DNA from: Camelus ferus
Taxonomy: Eukaryota
Assembly: GCF_009834535.1 (NCBI RefSeq)
Contig: NC_045696.1
Span: 32,862,001-32,926,000 of the forward strand
Reading direction: 5' to 3'
DNA length: 64,000 nt
Shown here: one piece after another, positions 8,363-61,872 of the stretch
How positions within the stretch are numbered: the stretch's first letter is position 1
Layout: each line of letters starts with the position of its first letter
The notes under the pieces: model-generated
Seen by the model: only the letters and a program-made list of their open reading frames with translations
Told to the model about the DNA's origin: nothing
The model's database searches: none
Position numbers and translations under genes: made by a program

Positions 8363-9710
8363 GCTGTGGTGTTATAACCACACTCATATCCCTCCCCATC
8401 CCCACCAACTCTTAACTATCCTTAACCTTTGGTAGCCACTAATCTTTTCTCTATCTCTTTCAACTTTATTTATAGAGTTTTTGATTGTATCACTTTCACT
8501 TGTATGTTTTCTTAGTAGTTGATCCAGGTATTGAAATACTATACATTTAGGACTTACCACAGTCTACCAGTTTTACCACTTCTAGTCAGGTATGGAAACC
8601 ATTAGGTTCCTTTGCCCTGTCCAGTTTTTACTTGTCTTGAGCATTCCTTCCATATGTGTTGCACACTGCATCAGTCAATGTTACAATTTTTGTTTCTAAC
8701 ATCATGTAATGGAGAAAACTCAGGAGAAGAAGGATAGTCTATATTGTATCTATCCCAATTTTTTGTTCTTTCAATTGTTCTTTTTTCCTTCTTGATGCTC
8801 CAAAATTTCTTCTATTCTGTTTGAAGAACTTGAACTTTTCTTTAAGACAGATCTGCAAGGGAAACATATTCTTAGTTTTCCTTTTTCTAAGAATATATTT
8901 CTTTCCCCTTGATACCTGGAAGTCAGTTTCGCTGGATAAGAATCCACTATCGACAGTTCTTTCGTTTCCACACTTTGAAAAATATGCCACTCCCTTTGAC
9001 CTCCATGATTTCCAATGAGAAATCTTTTATCATATGAGCTAGTGTCCTCTTACAGGTAATATATGTTTCTCTCTGGCTGCTTTCAAGGGTTTTTTTTGGT
9101 TTTTTTTTTTTCTGTTTGGATTTCAGGAGTTTAATTTTAATGTATCTTGGTAAGGACTTCTTTGGGTTTAACTTATTTCAGTTTGCTCCTCTTCTTGTTT
9201 TTGTAAATGTATTTCTTATACCAAACTTGTGAAGATTTTGATCACTATTTCTTAAATTCTTTCAGCTCCACTCTCTTTCTCTTCTTTTGGGACTCATATG
9301 GTACCAGTGTTGGATATTTTGTTATTCTCCTACAAGTCCTTGAGGCTCTGTTTTTTGTTTGTTTATTTTTGTTTGTTTGTTATTTTCCAATCTATTTTCT
9401 CTCTCTTGTTCAGAAAGGGTGAATTTTATTGTTTTATCCTTAAGTTCACTGATTATATCCACTGACATCTACATTGTACTATTAAGCCAATCTCATGAGT
9501 TGTTATGGTTATTGCATTTTGACTTCTATAATTTCCTTTTGATTCTTTTAAAATAGTTTTTATATTATTTTGCTTTCTTTATTTATTATTTGTTTTAGGA
9601 TAATTAGTTAATTATTTGTTAAAGCATTTTTAACATGGGCATGGCTTCTTTAAATTCTTTGTCAGATAATTCCAACGTCTGTTTTAACTCAGTGTTAGCA
9701 TCTATTGATT

Positions 9711-11567: not shown

Positions 11568-11720
11568 CTTTAAGGGACAATAGGATCGAGCTGGTTCGGG
11601 CTTCCTGGCATGAATTGAGTATCAGCGTCAGTGATGTTTCTCTCTCTGATGAAGGACAATACACCTGTTCTTTATTTACAATGCCTGTCAAAACTTCCAA
11701 GGCCTATCTCACTGTTCTGG
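11568..11720 (+). CDS. CADM2: CADM2 internal coding exon (153 bp, phase 1-1), C-terminal half of Ig V-set domain 1
   Basis: Acceptor tttctag| and donor G|gtaagt. Translates (A)LRDNRIELVRASWHELSISVSDVSLSDEGQYTCSLFTMPVKTSKAYLTVL(G), containing the V-set DxGxYxC motif. I recognise this peptide as CADM2. Confidence 0.97.
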
Positions 11721-13858
11721 GTAAGTGCAAAGGACTAACACTATGTAATCACAAGCCAGAGAGGTGTGTACAGCAACAACAACATGAATCAATAACAAAT
11801 ATACACTTTGAGGATCATCCGAGGGCATTTTAAAAAGCCACTTAGTCACTTTTCCATTTTATAAATAAAGAGAGGTGTAAAGATTTATATGACTTCTGGA
11901 GAACACAGCCATTTTGTTTCCTGGCCAGCAACAGACACCACGTTTCTTGATTTTCAACTAAATTCCTTTGTGTCAGCTCATCTATATAATGCATATATGG
12001 TGATCCTTGTGTAAAGTGATAGAATAGTGAGCATACTGAGTTCAACGTGTCTATAGGATATGCCTCCATTTTCTCATCAGTTACCAATGAGGGTCTTCCC
12101 TAATATCTTTTGGCTGCTGGATATGACCCCTTTGTGTATTTCAGTGTCTTTAAAGGACCCTGACATTTCTACATACCTTCTTGCCTTTTGACTTTGTAGT
12201 TTTCTAGATTTCTAAATGAAGTGCATAATGTCACTTGTGCATGCATCTTGTAGCTTCTTTTTGTTTTTATTCTCTAAATATTGGACGATTTTTCTAAAGG
12301 TTATAGTGACACCAAAAAGCAATACATTCATAGAGATTCCAAGGCAATCAAGCTGCAGCTCAGACAGAGCTCTCTGTGATTCCACAGACGTCAGTGGCCC
12401 AATCAGCTGAAATTGCCGTAGTTCATTGAAACACACCTGTGTACTGAACAAGTTAGAGGAATTTAAAGATTGAGTTTTTTTCCCCTAGCTCTCCTTCCTT
12501 TTTTGATAGATAAAGGCAGAACACTGCATTTAAATGAACTAGTGCATGCTATTCTTTTGGGTGAGAATATTAAACTTAATCCTGCTAGTGAATTGGTTTT
12601 GTGCATAGGATGTGAAATATGTTTCTTTGCAAGTCCCACTGGGACTATTTTTATAAAAATCTTCTCAAGTCTGCCATTAAGGACAGTATATACCCACTAA
12701 AGGGAGTATTTCAGGATAACAATTGCCTAAGGTTAATGTATTGCTCTGTAGAGGAGCTACCTCGAGACCCCAAGGATAGACAAATGGCTAATTTCAGTTT
12801 ATTAAATAGTGGTGTGACATAATTTTTTTAAAGGCAATATGAAGGTAACCAGAAAAAAAAAAAACAACTAGTCAGCTAATCGGAAAATGTTGATCTGTCA
12901 TTTATCTTTGTTCTTGTTGTTTTAGTTTGTATTTCTTATATTGCTGCTGTCCAGTATTCTTACATTTGATGCTTTTCAAACTGAATTAAATAGTACAATA
13001 AGCTTTCAGCCTGCCTTTATGACTGAATACTTTTAGAAGAAATTTTAATAAACCTCTGTCATGACAACAGAATATGGTTGCACTCCCAAAATGTGTAGTT
13101 TTCTTTATTTCAATCACTCATATACGGGATCTGCATATTAGTTATCTGCTTATTCATTGGATGATTTGGACTCGAGAAGGTACTAAGTGGCTAGCATTAA
13201 AAATAATACATATTATGCTCCACAAAACTACAATTGCATTTCTAATACAAATGATATCAAGAGACATTCTCTACTTTAGAAGAATCAGGAAATCAGGAGT
13301 ATAGTTGCAATTATTGATGAATCCCTTATTCCAAAATGCATTTTCTAGAACAAAGTACACAGAAGATAATATGTTTTTCAGCTTTAAGAATTATGAAATC
13401 AGGAATGAAAGATGCTATTTTAGATAAATCACAATTTACTAAATAATAAAGAAATGTCCTTTGCAGAGTTTACTTCCCAATGCAAGCAATCTACCTTCTT
13501 AAATCCCCATACTGGTAAATCTTAAGATATATTGAATGGTTGCTTTTAAGATTTACAAAGAGTATTTTTACAGGTAAAATTCAATTAAAAAAAAAAGACT
13601 TTGAACTAAATGCACTTTATGTTTTCAGGATAATAAATACAAATATGCATATATGCAGACACATAAGTATGTGTGTGTATATATATACACACACACATAT
13701 TTTTATATATTTTAAATATTTTATTATATAGAAGTGTATTATTCTTGATTGAAGTTATTGTCCATTAAACACCCAGTTTAGTTTGTGAAAATAATAGTCA
13801 TAAGAACAAATCAACCCTGGTAATTGATGTTTATTTCATTTATTTGCTTAAATTTCAG

Positions 13859-20699: not shown

Positions 20700-23140
20700 A
20701 AATTTCTTATTAAAAAAGAAAACAATTTTATTGAGATAGAAACCATCAACACAATCAAGATAATGAACATATTCACCATCTACAAAAGTTCATTCATATA
20801 CCTTCATAATTCCTTCCTCCTGACCTTCTCTGCTCATCCCGCATCTCCCTCCAGGAAACCACTGCTCTGCATTATGTCATATAGATTACATTTTCTAGAA
20901 TTTTATATAAATAGAACCATATAGCATATACTCTTCTTCTGATCTCTCAGGATAAATATTCTGAAATTCATCTATGTTGCGAGTATAAATATTCTTCCTG
21001 TCTATTGCTGATTAGTATTCTATTGAATATATCCATAGTATAACTTTTTTATTCATTTATCTGGTGATAGACTTTTGGGTTATTGACAGTTTGGGGCCTT
21101 GCAATAAAGCTGCTATGAACATTTGTGTATAAGTCTTTGTATGTATCTATGCTTCTGTTTCTCTTGGGTAAACGCCTAGGAGCAGAACGGTCGCGTCAAA
21201 TGGCAGACCTATGTATAGTAATTTTTAAAGATATTTCCAAACTATTTTTTAACGTAGTTATACTACTTCATGAAATCCAAATTTTTAATTGTATTAATAC
21301 TATTTTTTTTTTACTTTTAAAAATCATGCCTTGGTATATTATATGTAAGATACTTTTGCCTAATTCAAGATCACAAAGAATCACTTCCATAAATTTCACA
21401 TTTTTTTTAGGTTTTGAATGTATTTTGAGTGATTTTATATTTTCAATGCACTTCTCTCTTATTTCTCTCAGCTGTATTATTTCTAGGTCAGTTTCGATAG
21501 ATTGATTGATCTCATTATAGATAGCATTTTCCTGCTTCTTTGAACGCAGAGTAGTTTTTGATTGGATTCCAGACATTGTAAATTTTACCTTTCTGATGCT
21601 GAATATTCTCCTATTTCTATAAATATTCTTAAGCTTTGTGCTGGTTAACTTAGAAAGAGTTTAACCCTTTCAGAGCTTCTTTTAAATTCCTTAAGTGGGA
21701 CTGAGTAGTTTTTATTGTAAGATTATTTTTCTCTTTTTTTTAATATATATATTTTTGTTGAAGTATAGCCAGTTTAAAATGTGTCGATTTCTGGTGTATA
21801 GCACAATGCCCCAGTCATACATGAACATGTGTATATTCATTTTCATATTCTTTTTCATTATAAGTTACTACAAGATATTGAATCTTGTTCCCTGCATTAT
21901 ACAGCATAAACTTGTTTATCTATTCTATATATATCAGTTGGTATCTGCAAATCTCTAACTCCAGTTTATCTCCTCTCACTCTCCCCACCCCCCGACCCAG
22001 TAACCACAAGTTTGTTTTCTGTGTCTGAGAGTCTGTTTCTGTTTTGCAAATAAATTTGTCTTTTTTTTTTTAGATTCCACATATGAGTGATATCATATGG
22101 TATTTCTCTTTCTCTTTCTGGCTTACTTCATTTAGAATGACAATCTCCAGGTCCATCCGTATTGCTGCAAATGGCATTATTTTATTATTTTTTATGGATG
22201 AGTAGTATTCCATTGTATAAATATACCACAGCTTTTTTATCCAGCCATCTGACAGTGGACATTTAGGCTGTTTCCATGTCTTAGCTATTGTAAATAGTGC
22301 AGCTGTGAACATTGGGGTGCATGTATCCTTTTGAACTAAATTTCCTTTTGGATATATGCCCAGGAGTGGGATTACTGGATCATATGGCAAGTCTATTTTT
22401 AGTCTTTTGAGGAATCTCCATAATGTTTTCCACAATGACTGTGCCAAACTACATTCCCACCAATAGTATAGGAGGGTTCCCTTTTCTCCACACCCTCCCC
22501 AGCATTTATCATTTGTGGACTTTTGAATAACAGCCATTCTGACTGGTGTGAGGTGATGATCTCATTGTAGTTTTGATTTGCATAAGAATTACTTATTTTT
22601 CATTCCTGAGGTAAAATCCTCTCAGTGCCCACGGTAACAGTAATGAGTTTTTTCAGTCAGGTTGGTTAGGACAAGCACTGTTCCCAGCCCTGAGTAAGCA
22701 CCATACGCTATTTCCTCTAATCCTTTTTGATGGTTCTTGTCCATCAAACACTTTCCTCACACAGAAATGCTGATCAGTACTTACTTTGCCAAATGCTGTG
22801 GGGGGCACTGCAGATGTCTGAAGGTCTCTTTTCGTGTAGTTCCCTTCTTTTTTGATACTCTATCCTGCAAACTCTAGCTGCTTTAGTCTTCTTAGACACC
22901 CAGCTCCATCACCTGAACTCGGGAAGGCCACCAGGTTCTGCATGGGTTTCCCTCCATGTACCTCAGCCTAGACGATCTCTCAAGACATTAAACAGGGACA
23001 GATTTTAGGGTTCATCTCACTAGCTTTCCATCTTTCTGGGATCAGTGTCCATGATTATGATGTTCAGTATCTCGAAAACTTTGTTTTCAGGTAAGGGGTA
23101 AATCCAGCTTTGTTATTCCACTGGGTTGGAAGCAAAAGTT
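20700..23140 (-). mobile_element. Old L1M (L1ME-like): 3' end (~20700-21260) plus 5' region (~21440-21730 and 22583-23140), split by a young L1
   Basis: 3'-end motifs (ttttctagaattttatataaatag, aataaagctgctatgaacatttg). 5'-end-like ggtaaatccagctttgttattccactgggttggaagcaaaagt near 23100-23140. Confidence 0.62.
21732..22582 (-). mobile_element. Young 5'-truncated L1 (ORF2 C-terminus + 3'UTR), nested in an older L1M
   Basis: Open ORF 22070..22537 is the ORF2p C-terminus, with a degenerate cysteine-rich motif ([18 protein letters not shown]). The 3'UTR resembles that of the 52-kb element. T-rich tail ~21732-21757. No convincing TSD. Confidence 0.92.
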
Positions 23141-24439: not shown

Positions 24440-27150
24440 TGGAGCTTTATGGAGATACAATTAGTATACCATCAACTTTACCCAAAGTGTACAATTCAAT
24501 GATTTTTAGTAAGTTCACAGAATAGTGTAACTCTTACCACAAGTAATTTTACATTTTCATCATCCTAAAGAAATTTTGTATTAGTAGTCACTCCGTATTT
24601 CCTCCCAATCTCCTCCCTGGCTCTAGGCAACCACTAATCTGTTTTCTGTCTCTATAAATTTGCCCATGGTGGATATTTCGTATGAATGAATTCATATTAT
24701 TTATGGCCTTCTGTCACTAGCTTCTTAGCATAACATATTCAAGGTTTGTGTTCCAGCATACATCAGCACTTCGTTGCTGAATATTATTCCATCGTGTGCA
24801 CCTACTTCATGTTACTTATTTATTTGTCAGTTGATGGACATTTGGGTCTTTACATTTTTTTGCTATTATGAATAACTCTGCTATGAAAATTTAAGTGCAA
24901 GATTTTGTATAGAAGTATGCTTTTATTTCTCTTGGGTATGTACCTAGGAAAGATATTGCTGGGTCTTATGGTTTCTCATTCATGAACTTGGGTGCTTTAT
25001 GTGTGTGTATATATATGTATGTGTGTGTGTGTGTGTGTGTGTGTATGTTTGTAATTGTTAGATCTTTCTAATGGATTGACACATAAGGTTACAATTGATA
25101 TAGGTTGATTTCTGTCTACCATTTCACATTTTATTTTTTCGTTTCGATTGTTTTTAATGAGAAGTCAGTTAATATTTTTTGAGTCCCTTTGTTTGTCAAA
25201 AGGTTTTCTCTTCCTGCTTTCAAGATTGATTTTTTTTTCTTTGTCTTTGTTTTTGACATTTGTGTTATAATGTGTTTGGATATAGATCTTTTATTTGCAT
25301 TTAACCTATTTGAAGTTTACTGAGCTTCTTGTATGTGTAGATTAATGTTTTTCATCAAGTTAAGAAGGTTTAAATCAGTCTTTCCTCAAAAGTCTTTCTA
25401 CTCCCTTATTCCTTTCCTTCTGATCTTATTACACAAGTTTTGTACTTAATGGTGTCATAAATATCTCTCAGGCTTTGTTAATTTTTCTTTATAATTTTTC
25501 TTTCTTTTCTTCAGATTATAAAATCTTCATTGATCTTGTATCTCTTGTAGTTTGTAACTACTGTTGAGTCCTCTACTAAATTTCTCATTCCAGTTATTGC
25601 ATTTTTCAATTGCAGAACTTTGATTTGGCTCTTGCTTTATAATTTCTATATCTTTATTGATGTTCACAATTACTTTGTTTTACTTCTTGAAGTATGTTAT
25701 ATTTTAGTTCTTTGAACATATTTATAATGAATCCTTTGAAGTCTTTGTCTGTTAAATCTATCATTTGGACCTTCTTCCCAGAAGTTTTTGATGTTTGCTT
25801 TCCTTTCCTTTGTAGGAGTTACGCTTTGCTGTTATTTTCATGTCTCATTTTTTTTTTTAAATTAGACATTTAGGTAATAAACTGAGCAATTCTGGATACT
25901 GATCTCACCTTGCAGCTTATTGTTGTTTGCTTTTTCATAAATTTAGTCACTTGGGTGGACTGTTTACACTGCCTTTGACGTCACTCAGAGGACAAAGTTT
26001 TGATATGTGCATGGTCACCCTAGGAAGACAATAGTTTCTGTAGGGTTCTCTTTGACTGCTTCTTTCCCTAATATCTCTGTTAAGCTCCCCCTCTCTTGTA
26101 CACTGGTATTATGCACAGCTGTTCTTCTCCACCATTTGTCAGTTGATCGTGCTGTTGTTTTTAACAATGTTCTGTGCATAAATTGTTCTGCAGCCTGATC
26201 CAATTAAATTGAGGACACTTTGCTGAAGTATTTTTTTGAGGCTAGTCTTTGAGGTTTTCTTTGATGACAGGAAGTTTCTTCCTAGCTGTTCTTTTCTCTC
26301 ATAAACTAGCTGGTCTGTGGTCTAGCTTGTTGAATTCATGGGGCTACCCATCTCCTCTTACTTGCTTACTACCGAAATCTTTAATATTTTCAAGAGGTCC
26401 CTAGGTTTGGGCTTTCTCACTCTCTGTTCCAAATAGTGCCCTTAGAGAGATCTTCAGAATGCTTTTATTATGGCCTGCCTCTTCCCCTGGGCAAAATATC
26501 CATACTGCTTCTCCTGAGCTAGTGGTATGGCCTTCTTTTGAAATAACACTCACTCCTACTTTATAAGCAGGATATGGGGAAGTGGTAGTAGCCTGTGGTC
26601 TTTTTGGCTCGCCTGTCTGACTTAAAATCTCTGTTCTGTAAGTGGACTGGGTGAGAACTGTGGAGATCCTTATATTCTTGGCCAGTGAGTTGGGACTGGG
26701 TAGAGGAAGATAACCTTAATCTCTCAGCCACACTCACTCGGAATTAAGTCTCTGCAACCAAGAACAAGAGTGAGGGGAATACAAAATGCTGGCTACCTGC
26801 CTCTCCTAAAAAAATAATGTAGTCCTTGATTGGGAGCTGGCAGGGAAAAGGAGCCCCATCTTTTTTGGTCACATTCATCAGGAGTTAAACTCCCCTCCAG
26901 CTGAGCTGGAGGTGGGGTAGATGTAGTGAGCAAGACATGAGTCCAGTACCATAGACTCTACCTGGTCTTACTAAGATTTAATAGATTTCTTGAATAATCG
27001 TTTCTTCCTTTGCTGTATGCTCTTAGCACAATTTTTAGAGACTTAAATGTGTGCATGTGTGTTACTACATAATTTTCATCAGCTCTGACTGTTTCACTAG
27101 ACAGAGAGTTTACAGAATTTTTTATTGTGATATTCCCTAGTTGCCCTCTG
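24440..27150 (-). mobile_element. Old L1M (L1MA/MB-like): 3' end (~24440-24975) plus ORF1/5' region (~25040-27150)
   Basis: aagtgtacaattcaatgatttttagt, ctaggcaaccactaatctgttttctgtctctata and cagttgatggacatttggg mark the 3' end. Further on, gagaagtcag and ttcctgctttcaagatt are ORF1-region motifs. Confidence 0.7.
24999..25046. repeat. Compound (TG)/(TA) microsatellite
   Basis: atgtgtgtgtatatatatgtatgtgtgtg...; lies at the junction between the two halves of an old L1. Confidence 0.9.
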
Positions 27151-28246: not shown

Positions 28247-28337
28247 ATTTATTTTATAAATACATGAATTATGAACCTTGTGAATACCCTTGTGAATTTA
28301 TTTTATAAATACATGAATTATGAACCTTGTGAATACC
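28247..28337. repeat. Perfect 42-bp duplication with a 7-bp spacer
   Basis: atttattttataaatacatgaattatgaaccttgtgaatacc at 28247-28288 and 28296-28337. Confidence 0.93.
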
Positions 28338-47689: not shown

Positions 47690-48400
47690 TAAGAGAAATG
47701 AGACTATATCCTGTCTTCCTCTCTTCTAACACCTGCCTGCTCCTGTGTATTTTAACTCACTGAGGCAGATGCTGGGGTGACTGGCCCTTTTGGCACACAC
47801 CATTCCTGTGCACTGAGTAGACGGGGGCCCAGGGAAGTAACACCCGCACCCCCACCCTCAGCAATCCTCAACCAAACACAGATGAGCACTGGTCAATATT
47901 CCCTCAATACTCCTCTCCCTCACCCATCAATTAAGAGAACCCTGAGGCGTTCCCTACATTGTCTTCAGAGTTTCACAGCAGGACTGACTCCCAGTTGCCC
48001 CTGGTGTAATCTGCTCAATAATACACTCTTTTTTTTTAAAATTTTTTTAATTGAAGTATATTCAGTTTACAATGATTTGTCAATTTCTGTGTACAGCATA
48101 ATGTTTCAGTCATACATGTACATACATATATTCGTTTTCATATTCTTTTTCATTATAGGTGACTACATGATATTGAACAGAAAAAAAGTGCTGTTTATCT
48201 ATTTTATATATAGTAGTCAGTATCTGCAAATCTCAAACTTCCAATTTATCCCTTTCCACCCTCTTCCCCCTTGGTGACCATGTTTATTTACTATGTCTGT
48301 GAGTCTGTTTCTGAGTCTCTTATCAATAATACACTCTTTATTTACTTCCTTCCCTTCCTATCTCACTTCCCAGTGCTCCCTGAGGTCACCCCCTGTAAAA
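47690..48400 (+). mobile_element. ERVL LTR16-like solo LTR interrupted by the young L1 3'UTR insertion
   Basis: cagagtttcacagcaggactgactcccagttgccc...ctgctcaataatacactcttt|atttacttccttcccttcctatctcacttccc is continuous once the insertion is removed. Confidence 0.6.
48032..48322 (-). mobile_element. Short 5'-truncated L1 3'UTR insertion
   Basis: Perfect 17-bp TSD tcaataatacactcttt at 48015-48031 and 48323-48339. Poly-T tail. Body homologous to the L1 3'UTRs at 21755-22045 and 52275-52540. Confidence 0.9.
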
Positions 48401-50524: not shown

Positions 50525-50615
50525 ATACACCATCAGTAAAGATTATACCATCTACTCCTTTTCCACAAGAAGGACAACCTTTAATTTTGACTTGTGAATC
50601 CAAAGGAAAACCACT
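50525..50615 (+). CDS. CADM2: CADM2 internal coding exon (91 bp, phase 1-2), N-terminal part of Ig domain 3
   Basis: Long T tract then ctag| acceptor; donor CT|gtaagt. Translates (Y)TPSVKIIPSTPFPQEGQPLILTCESKGKP(L). In frame with the previous exon. I found no following exon before 64000. Confidence 0.96.
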
Positions 50616-52019: not shown

Positions 52020-52557
52020 TATGTAAATGTATGTGATAGCTTTTCTGCCAATCAAATTTAATAACTAAAAATTTATTTCTCATAACATTTGTTATTTAAG
52101 TATAGATTTTATATTATCACATGAGGAATTTATCTAAAATAATTTTAAGACAGAAGCCTGAAATTTCAACTTCCTCAGTTGTATTGTATTATACTATTTA
52201 ACGCACTAAGTGAACTCACAATTTCTTTATCACCAGTATTGATATTTTGTTTTTTTTTTAACTTTTTAACTTTTTTTATTGAGTAATAGTCATTTTACAA
52301 TGTTATGTCAAATTCTAGTGTAGAGCACAATTTCTCAGTTATACATGAACATACGTATATTCATTGTCATATTTTTTTTCTGCTATGAGCTACCACAAGA
52401 TCTTGTTTATATTTCCTTGTGCTATACAATATAATCTTGTTTATCTATTCTGCATTTTAAAATCCCAGTCTGTCCCTTCTCACCCCCCGCTTCCTTGGCA
52501 ACCACAAGTTTGTCTTCTATGTCTATGAGTCTGTTTCTGTTTTGTTTTGTTTTGTTT

Positions 52558-52928
52558 TTAGATTCCTCATATGAGCGATCACATATAGTATTTTTCTTTC
52601 TCTTTCTGGCTTACTTCACTTAGAATGACATTCTACAGGAACATCCATGTTCCTGCAAATGGCGTTAAGTTGTCGGTTTTTATGGCTGAATAGTATTCCA
52701 TTGTATAAATATACCACCTCTTCTTTGCTCAGTCATCTGTTGATGGACATTTAAGCTGTTTCCATGTCTTGGCTATTGTAAATAGTGCTGCTATGAACAT
52801 TGGGGTGCAGGTGTCATTTTGAAGTAGGGTTCCTTCTGGATATATCCCCAGGAGTGGGATTCCTGGGTCATATGGTAAGTCTATTCCTAGTCTTTTGAGG
52901 AATCTCCATACTGTTTTCCACAATGGCT
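52558..52928 (-). pseudogene. L1 ORF2p extreme C-terminal remnant
   Basis: [30 protein letters not shown]...[19 protein letters not shown]. Premature TGA at 52729. Aligns with the ORF2 remnant at 22070-22537. Confidence 0.92.
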
Positions 52929-53068
52929 TTCCTTGCTTCCTCTCCCACTCTTAATGATTTAAATGTATTCTTTTACAATTTTGTGTTTATTCTTTTTGTA
53001 ATTCATGGTAGTTATCACCTTTCCAGTTATGAGTTTCTCATTTTTGTAGCATCTTGCTTCTTTTCTAT

Positions 53069-53968
53069 TTAGAGTAGACCTGTCAATATTTCTTTTAGCA
53101 TGGGTTTAGTGTTGCTAAACTGTTTCAGTTTTTGCTTGTCTGTGAAGTTCTTTATCTCTCCTTCTATTCTAAAGGATAGCCTTGCTGGGTAGAGTATCCT
53201 AGGCTGCATCTTTTTTTCATTCAGGACTTTGAATATATCTTGCCACTCCCTTCTGGCCTGTAGTGTTTGTGTAGAGAAATCAGCTGAGAGCCTTATGGGG
53301 GTTCCCTTGTAACTCACTCTTTGCTTTTCTCTTGCTGCCTTTAGAATCATTTCTTTATCCCTGACTCTGGCCATCTTGATTATGATATGTCTTGGTGTGA
53401 GTCTGTTTGGGTCCTTCCTGTTTGGGACCCTCTGAGCCTCCTGTTCTTGGATATTTGATTCCTTTAGGTTTGGAACGTTTTCAGTCATGATATCTTCAAA
53501 TACCTCTTCAATCCCCTTTGTTCTTTCTTCCCCTTCTGGAACCCCTATTATGCGTAGATTGGCACGCTTTATATTATCCCATAGGTCCCTTATATTGTTT
53601 TCATTGTTTTTTATTTGTTTTTCTCTCAGCTGTTCTGATTGGGTGCTTTCTGTTGTCCTGTCTTCTAGGTCACTTATTCGTTCCTGTGCATTATCTAGCC
53701 TGCTTTGTACAGCCTTTAGGTCAGCTCTCATCTCAGCAAATGAGTTTATTAATCCTACTTGGTTCTTCTTTATAGCTTCTATTTAATTTTTGACATATTT
53801 TATATCTCTAAACACTATTTCTTTTAGTTCCTTCAGTACTTTGATCACTCCTTTTTTGAAATCTTGATCTAGTAGGCCATCGATGTCTATTTCCTTGATC
53901 GTGCTTTCAGGGGATTTCTCTTGATCTTTAAATTGGGAGTGGTTCCTCTGCTTCTTCATATTGCTCAT
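53069..53968 (-). pseudogene. L1 ORF1p (299 codons) interrupted by a single in-frame stop
   Basis: ORFs 53783..53968 and 53069..53731 share a frame and are separated by one TAA (53783-53785). A coiled-coil-like region is followed by typical ORF1p motifs (NLRIIGVPEGEE, PRHIIIK, YKGTPIRLSADFS, ARREW, YPARLSF). Confidence 0.93.
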
Positions 53969-55302
53969 TATCTCTTTGGGACTGTGGCTTAAGGAGTATC
54001 AGTTATCTTGTTCTCTTGGAGACGCTGTGCTCTTAATGATTTTATCGAGAGGTCTTTGTGTCTTCGCCCTGTTTCATGAACTCAGCTTGCTGTTTCCAGA
54101 GGCCCTTAGTTGGCACCCTCGTCTGTGCTGCTCCCAGTGGCTGTGGGCTAGCAGATCACGCCCCCTCCCAACACTGGGTCTGGTGCTGATCTCTTATCCG
54201 GTGGGTGGGCGGGTCACTCCCCTTCCCGATGCTGCAGTCAGATGCTGCACTCGGGGAGGCAGGTGAGCAGATCGCACCCCCTCTCAGCACTGTGGTCAGG
54301 TGCTGCATTCCTGCCAGGAAAGCAGGTTGCCACCTGCCCTTTCCCCGCACCTGTCACTCCGCTGCTCTGTGCAGCTGCCCGCTCTGGCTCTGGTCGGTGT
54401 TCTGAAGGCGGGCTCAAGGAAGATCGCGGAATGGCTCCGCCTCTGCTCCATGCCAAATCTCAGCTCCTTATTTGTCTTGGAAGCGCAAGTTCTCTGAGGT
54501 GCCAGGGCAGAAAGACCCTATCTGCCTCCAGCTGTAAACAAGTCTCGGTCCTGCCTAGGAGGTTTCGGAGTCCCCAGGTGCGGATTCAGGTCTTGGCCCC
54601 ACCCCCGCCGGGGCGCTGCGCACAAGAGAGTATGACGGCTGTGGCTGAGCCCCGCTTCTCTTCTCGCGAGAAGCCCTAGTAATGGGCGCACAAGTCTGAG
54701 GAGACAAAGGCTGTGGCGCCCCTCCACCCAGTGCACACAAGCCCTGTTGCTTTGCTTTTTTCACAATTTATGGGGGACCGAGATTGTTCTGCTCCATATC
54801 CCCTCCCAGCCAAGGCATGCAGTCCCCTGCAGTCCCCCAGGGCTGCCTCAGTGCAGCTGCCCCAGTCCTCCGCCTGGCTCAGGTGGCCTGTCCCGGCCCC
54901 AGCTGCCGGCTCGCATCTCGGGCTGGATGTCGCAGGGACCCTTTGTTCCCGTTTAACTCAGTTCTTTAGGACAGGGGGTGCTCAGGGCAGATCTGAGCCT
55001 CAGAGGCTCCCTCTCTGTCCCAGTGGCCTCCGTTGGAGAGGGGAGACCCAGCAAACGAGCACCAGTCCTTCTTTGCCGCTCCCTCCCCGCGGGACCGGTC
55101 CTACACTGTTTTGCTTTTTCTTCTTTTTCCCTTTTTTCCTACCAGATTTTTGGTGTCTTTGTCTTTCGAAGAGTGCGATGTTCTGTGTGAGTTCAGCAGG
55201 TGCTCTGGTTGGCTAAGTGGGTCCGTAGATGTGAGTTTTGGTGTATTTGTGGGAGAGGGTGAGCTACAAGCGTCCTTCTACTCTGCCGTCTTACTTCTCT
55301 CT
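53969..55302 (-). promoter_or_regulatory. L1 5'UTR / internal promoter region, GC- and CpG-rich
   Basis: The only extended GC-rich stretch in the window. The 5' end reads agagagaagtaagacggcagagtagaagg on the - strand, a variant of the L1 5' YY1 motif AAGATGGCG. Degenerate internal repeats (gcagatc...ccccct...cactg...ggtgctg) at ~54150 and ~54265. Activity is not shown by the sequence. Confidence 0.7.
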
Positions 55303-55789
55303 CCAGTATTGATATTTTAAAACTGTTCTCTCTTCTAGTAATTATTTTCTAGAGAATAAAAATATACTGATTTAAAGAGAATTTTATAAATTAATCTATT
55401 TTCTATCTTTTAACAAACTTTTAAGGCATTTTCAGACCTTGAAAGGAGCACATTTTTTCATAGTAGCTTTACTACATTCATCCTGTGCAGTTCACTTTGG
55501 TAGTTCTTACCCTCTGATAAGCTTAAATTGCTTATAGAAAACATTTTTCAACGGCAGTTCGCTATCTAAATGTGGCAGTGCATTTCAGTATTATAGCTTC
55601 AAGAAGTGCTTTTGGCTGTAAGTTCAATACTTGGACTAAGAAAGAAGTGTAATAGACTCTTGGCAGCGTTTGACGTACTTAAGTCCTAATTTCTTACTCC
55701 CGGTTCTGTGTATCTAATACCAGAACTTTTTCCTCACCTTCCCTTCCATTTCAACTTTTATTCCTTTTGCTTATTATTTTCCAACTCTG

Positions 55790-61786: not shown

Positions 61787-61872
61787 AGAGAGATAGTCTC
61801 CATTAATTACTTAAAAGTTTAAGACAATAGAGAGATAGTCTCCATTAATTACTTAAAAGTTTAAGACAATAG
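61787..61872. repeat. Perfect 42-bp tandem duplication
   Basis: agagatagtctccattaattacttaaaagtttaagacaatag at 61789-61830 and 61831-61872. Confidence 0.95.

Follow-up and report, generated by a model that had tools for sequence, protein, structure and literature searches.

The 3,054-nt element read from 55302 to 52249 on the minus strand of the window (the whole 64-kb stretch of Camelus ferus DNA that was analysed) is probably a copy, now dead, from a HAL1-type family of camelids that originated through internal deletion and was mobilised by ORF2p acting in trans. The defining paper for HAL1 (half-L1) is reportedly that of Bao and Jurka in 2010. HAL1 elements are described as non-autonomous L1 derivatives that encode ORF1p only and have several independent mammalian origins (PMC5753468, PMC13756887), and the model given for them combines ORF1p in cis with ORF2p in trans (PMC3627910). 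Recent lineage-specific HAL1 families are described for marmoset and guinea pig (PMC3183009). The element analysed here is most likely a new HAL1-type copy, and the HAL1 kind itself is known from many mammals.

The boundaries of the element are set by a perfect 16-bp target-site duplication (CCAGTATTGATATTTT), located at 55303-55318 beside its 5' end and at 52233-52248 beside its 3' end; the two ends have no other exact repeat of 8 nt or longer in common. This 16-mer occurs twice in the whole window, and when 20,000 pairs of boundaries were drawn at random, none had a 16-mer in common. On the plus strand the empty site has the sequence TTTT/AA, which is the L1 endonuclease consensus (PMC5860796), and the element closes with an AATAAA signal at 52280-52275 that begins a 32-nt A-rich tail (52249..52280, minus strand). 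Combined, these hallmarks show insertion by endonuclease-dependent target-primed reverse transcription with a complete 5' end; the duplication, the TTTT/AA site and the A tail alone do not place the deletion before the insertion.

The closest upstream host exon (50525..50615, plus strand) is open, bounded by AG and GT, and is taken here to belong to CADM2. The translation of the exon at 11576-11725 agrees with Cell adhesion molecule 2 (PDB 3m45) in 49 of 49 residues, and the further plus-strand exons near 13.9, 31.8 and 50.5 kb (the last being the one just named), recognised from known motifs or by inspection, are presumably CADM2 exons as well. Given these plus-strand exons, the element lies antisense in a CADM2 intron, namely the one that follows the exon at 50525..50615, 1.6 kb downstream of it.

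The 5' end of the element is an L1 5'UTR of 1,334 nt (53969..55302, minus strand) with 58% G+C, in which an internal 40-nt repeat occurs in copies that are 85% alike. Its CpG o/e is 0.46 vs. 0.18 in the window, which corrects an earlier note on this DNA that called the 5'UTR full and CpG-rich: about half of the CpG has decayed. Downstream follows ORF1 (53069..53968, minus strand), whose 299 codons specify a coiled coil, an RRM and a CTD and which is dead in this copy, with a single internal stop at codon 62 (53785-53783). Three L1 ORF1p domains of Pfam (Tnp_22_trimer, Transposase_22 and Tnp_22_dsRBD) score over the cut-off. The nearest ORF1 relatives (proteins P0001, P0023 and P0083) are 85-87% identical, with 300 codons in P0001 (85% identical), vs. 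about 62% identity over the full length to the pig-type ORF1. No ORF1 relative was found in the genome contigs searched, and the metagenome contigs yielded two loci, at 57% and 67%, each belonging to an L1 lineage with a short spacer and thus uninformative for the junction. At the other end of the element, the L1 3'UTR (52281..52557, minus strand) is 84% identical to the 3'UTR of an older L1 at 21734-22069 of the window.

Between ORF1 and the 3'UTR, the first ~140 nt of a long ORF1-ORF2 spacer (52928..53068, minus strand), whose end resembles pig L1 spacers by eye, run directly into the end of ORF2 (52558..52928, minus strand), a remnant of ~123 codons of the camel 'ENV' type. The spacer/ORF2 deletion junction (52927..52928, minus strand) carries 1-2 nt of microhomology (A or AG) and lies 371 nt ahead of the ORF2 stop at 52558. 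It was placed by gapless alignment to the older in-window L1 3' end (22561-21734), with which the element agrees downstream of the AG at 52928-52927, agreement on the upstream side being limited to GTGGGA (52943..52948, minus strand). This hexamer stands in the same register in the spacer and in ORF2, 14 nt upstream of the break (shuffle p = 0.007 in a post hoc test). Because ordinary camel ORF2 reads C-x3-C-x7-H-x4-C-S-L-V-Q-P at this point, the break falls four codons past the cysteine motif. From the lengths of pig L1s (a spacer of about 390-530 nt and an ORF2 of about 3.8 kb), the sequence lost would be roughly 3.7 kb.

The anatomy claimed earlier was thus recovered in its main points: a 3,054-bp element with a perfect 16-bp duplication, a 299-codon ORF1 with one stop, a switch, ~140 nt beyond the ORF1 stop, into the final ~370 nt of ORF2, and a missing endonuclease, reverse transcriptase and cysteine motif. 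The first description lacked four premature stops that are present in the ORF2 remnant. These stops were considered as a trait of camel L1s, and this was rejected, as camel ORF2 tails are open to the normal stop.

The older, 5'-truncated L1 3' end used for the alignment (21734-22561, minus strand) has an open 163-codon ORF2 tail that is 85% identical to the ORF2 remnant of the element; a clear target-site duplication was looked for around it and none was found. Other L1-related sequences were also observed in the window. An L1 3'UTR piece of about 290 nt at 48015-48339 (minus strand), with a perfect 17-bp repeat on either side (48015 and 48323), is a clean 5'-truncated insertion, and weak ORF1-like matches at 8870-9174 and 25678-25869 (minus strand; 34-41% identity) are ancient L1 or HAL1-type remnants. 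Additionally, two exact short tandem duplications with 42-nt copies were seen at 28247-28337 and 61787-61870, with spacings of 49 and 42, respectively.

The nearest named relatives of the element are camel L1 proteins. To most of the matched proteins named Camelus dromedarius or C. bactrianus, the ORF2 remnant shows 85-94% identity, with 94% to P0124 over 67 residues. If the source lineage had long kept ORF1 under selection while the remnant was free to drift, more change would be expected in the remnant. Residue changes were found in 9 of 117 columns of the remnant (7.7%) vs. 15 of 256 in ORF1 (5.9%; Fisher p = 0.50), the column of the ORF1 stop being left out of the count because the relatives disagree there. 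A much longer drift of the ORF2 remnant than of ORF1 is not supported by this comparison. Among 22 camel ORF2 tails of the same type, 3.4% to 22% of residues are changed, with the top values coming from chimeric or frameshifted models. The stops are distributed less evenly, with four in the remnant vs. one in ORF1, against an expectation of 32% for the remnant (one-sided p = 0.037). The second half of the remnant (52558-52755, minus strand) holds all four stops and eight of the nine residue changes (p = 0.039 for the changes), a pattern that uniform drift does not explain; the clustering possibly reflects a chimeric tail or chance.

Decay after insertion is evident in the CpG loss and the internal stops, and the copy is of moderate age, probably in the range from millions of years up to roughly ten million or beyond. 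The word 'young' in the earlier note is overstated in view of the 5'UTR CpG o/e of 0.46 and the 6-8% of residues changed, and is valid only relative to the ancient eutherian HAL1. The wider claim, that the element may belong to a HAL1-type family and not be a one-off deletion, is supported in part: the HAL1-like anatomy is right, and a second locus is indicated indirectly.

That second locus is suggested by a dromedary gene model, P0130 (KAB1270384.1, Camelus dromedarius), a predicted protein of 941 residues with a predicted intron. P0130 contains translated pieces of the 5'UTR family of the element, in order, from window positions 55084 to 54083, and then runs from the 5'UTR into R-K-P-L-W, its ORF2 homology starting at the same codon as that of the window element. 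When a GT-AG splice was modelled in silico from a candidate donor (GT at 54080..54081, minus strand) in the 5'UTR to the AG just before 52931, the product read ASGNSKLRKPLWKTVWRF vs. ASENSKLRKPLWKTVWRL in P0130. The R-K of P0130 requires 0 base changes from the junction vs. 3 from the older in-window ORF2; starting from the ordinary L-V-Q, the 48 codon choices require 2 changes (8 choices), 3 changes (24) or 4 changes (16). Among the 342 anchored ORF2-tail proteins compared, R-K precedes the P-L-W anchor in one, and K alone stands at that position in nine further proteins. Within the 28 camel or camel-clustered proteins, three are without the anchor and R-K occurs in one of the 25 that have it.

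P0130 is considered to represent another locus because its match is confined to the L1 parts, 8 of the first 60 residues after the junction differ from the window copy (by eye), and it retains CpG-type codons where the window copy no longer has them. In one aligned block, CpG decay accounts for most of the differences between the two. The model also shows a 14-residue duplication followed by a tail resembling an older subfamily, and the duplication and older-type residues suggest that pieces of several L1s were stitched together in it. This one dromedary gene model thus gives an indirect indication of a second locus with the junction, which favours a family over a one-off deletion. The 5'UTR codons at the P0130 locus are CpG-rich, yet its ORF2 piece is 12-13% changed, and the locus could be a CpG island that derives from an L1, or else a genuine retrocopy of the deleted element after splicing. 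A different L1-bearing gene model was noted among the relatives, the Bactrian camel GTF2F2 isoform P0139 (XP_074234302.1), in which the last ~280 residues are L1 ORF2, either as an exonised L1 or as an annotation artefact.

The preferred history of the element comprises four steps. In the first, a full-length camelid L1 would have lost the ~3.7 kb between a point 140 nt inside the spacer and one four codons beyond the cysteine motif, with the ends joined through the 1-2 nt of microhomology and perhaps aligned by the short homologous patch upstream; the anatomy is observed and the deletion event is what we infer from it. Because the promoter, ORF1, 3'UTR and poly(A) signal were kept, the deleted element would then have been transcribed, its own RNA coated by ORF1p in cis, and ORF2p taken in trans from intact L1s via the A tail. 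This second step is argued from HAL1 and L1 biology, including the cis-preference and the poly(A)-dependent ORF2p recruitment described for L1 (PMC5860796). In the third step, as the hallmarks show, a full-length RNA was inserted at the TTTT/AA site in the CADM2 intron by the endonuclease-dependent route, and in the fourth the copy decayed by CpG loss, the one stop in ORF1 and the four in the ORF2 remnant. We infer that the deletion preceded the insertion, that ORF1p was used in cis and ORF2p in trans, and that the deleted form multiplied, the multiplication being argued from the one, indirectly indicated second locus.

The best-surviving alternative, which is nonetheless unlikely, is an internal deletion, whether one-off or recurrent, that founded no amplifying family; it would have come from template jumping in the course of insertion or from later microhomology-mediated repair. 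Such an origin is compatible with the about equal change of ORF1 and the ORF2 remnant, with a remnant whose level of change does not exceed that of ordinary camel L1 tails of its type, and with the single candidate for a second locus. If the deletion recurred, the second locus would stem from a separate deletion at the shared homologous patch, and the in-register GTGGGA could have guided such repeats. The crossover, however, lies outside GTGGGA, in 1-2 nt of homology located 14 nt further downstream, and an identical join would therefore not be expected to arise twice, and P0130 fits the exact join with no base change.

A spliced integrant comparable to the human SpIREs, in which a donor in the spacer was joined to the AG before CCA in ORF2 and the product was retrotransposed in trans, is very improbable. 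An AG does precede the 3' side of the join in ordinary ORF2, and human spliced, internally deleted L1 RNAs are reported to retrotranspose (PMC5860796). In the consensus spacers of pig L1s, however, a similar G-rich/A-rich motif at this place (7 of 13 motif places, by eye; PMC6501411 supplement 1) is followed past the homologous point by A/T-rich sequence with no GT, which disfavours splicing to the extent that the camel parent resembled the pig; moreover, the SpIREs described in the portion of PMC5860796 consulted are splices within the 5'UTR or between the 5'UTR and ORF1. Finally, the collapse of a full-length L1 during assembly can practically be dismissed, as the join has only 1-2 nt of homology and no repeat long enough to mislead an assembler, and a like join is implied by the independent gene model P0130, even though the matching sequencing runs share at most 0.60 of the sampled words and are silent on the junction.

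Further copies of the deleted form were sought in several collections. The junction peptide was found in none of the best 150 of 26,474 protein-representative matches, and the junction pattern gave 0 matches in metagenome and viral contigs; all of these collections are probably poor in camelid DNA. Sampled words of the sequence were shared by 20 sequencing runs from 8 studies under 3 organism labels, at 0.54-0.60 of the words, as would be expected of a copy that diverges by about 2-2.5% from the common words of its family if the flanks are fully present. In the literature searched, no description of a camelid HAL1 family was found, and Repbase, Dfam or supplements outside that literature may name one; 'HAL1' is absent from the main text of PMC8605555, and the PMC6675863 supplements have at least 869 'HAL1' rows, at least two of which are the ancient HAL1ME.

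Compared with known systems, the element shares with HAL1 its derivation from L1, a retained 5'UTR and full-length ORF1 (with one stop in this copy), the lack of an encoded ORF2p (endonuclease and reverse transcriptase being absent), and insertion as a unit by the L1 machinery with an L1-type A tail, a target-site duplication and a TTTT/AA site. Unlike HAL1, it has the form of a camelid L1 from which the middle was cleanly removed, with 123 ORF2 codons left, and its multiplicity is indicated indirectly, in contrast to that of the HAL1 families. The pig HAL1_SSc (L1A6; PMC6501411 supplements) is similar in its overall size of ~3 kb (3,016 bp, with a 5'UTR of 944 nt and an ORF1 of 906 nt) and in keeping part of the spacer, and is listed with N = 1482 in the 5'UTR divergence column. 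It differs in belonging to another L1 lineage with the short 5'UTR of the pig L1A type, and its middle is AT-rich, without the camel ORF2 remnant, such that the junction is not common to the two by eye. With autonomous camel L1s having the 'ENV'-type ORF2 tail (the KAB1262767.1 cluster, P0124), the element shares the same diagnostic residues, whereas those L1s continue from the cysteine motif into V-Q-P-L-W and remain open to the normal stop; the intact ORF2 of an autonomous L1, with endonuclease, reverse transcriptase and C domain, is absent from the element. SpIREs (Larson et al. 2018, PMC5860796) are likewise internally deleted L1s with normal insertion hallmarks, but those described have GT-AG junctions in the 5'UTR or between the 5'UTR and ORF1 and compromised promoters, whereas the camel element has its 5'UTR and ORF1 whole and no donor evident at the break.

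The finding leaves knowledge of how L1 or HAL1 works unchanged. HAL1 elements are natural experiments on the cis-preference of L1, since the keeping of ORF1 while ORF2 is dropped suggests that ORF1p must come from the RNA that it serves. A family made by a simple deletion from an identifiable parent would provide a clean parent-parasite pair for dating, for ORF1 dN/dS and for a trans-complementation assay. The annotation of camelid repeats would be corrected, as such copies would otherwise be split into two L1 fragments, and the copies of the family would supply presence/absence markers. A more far-reaching version, in which an uncatalogued camelid HAL1 family arose by clean homology-aligned deletion and reached at least hundreds of copies under selection on ORF1, beside a second, structurally different HAL1 in the same genome, is rather doubtful. 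If it is true, there would be two independent origins of ORF1-only parasites within camelids. The section of PMC3183009 on the alpaca reports no L1 family under 1% divergence in that species, and dated copies of the two families could then test their competition for ORF2p as camelid L1 activity waned.
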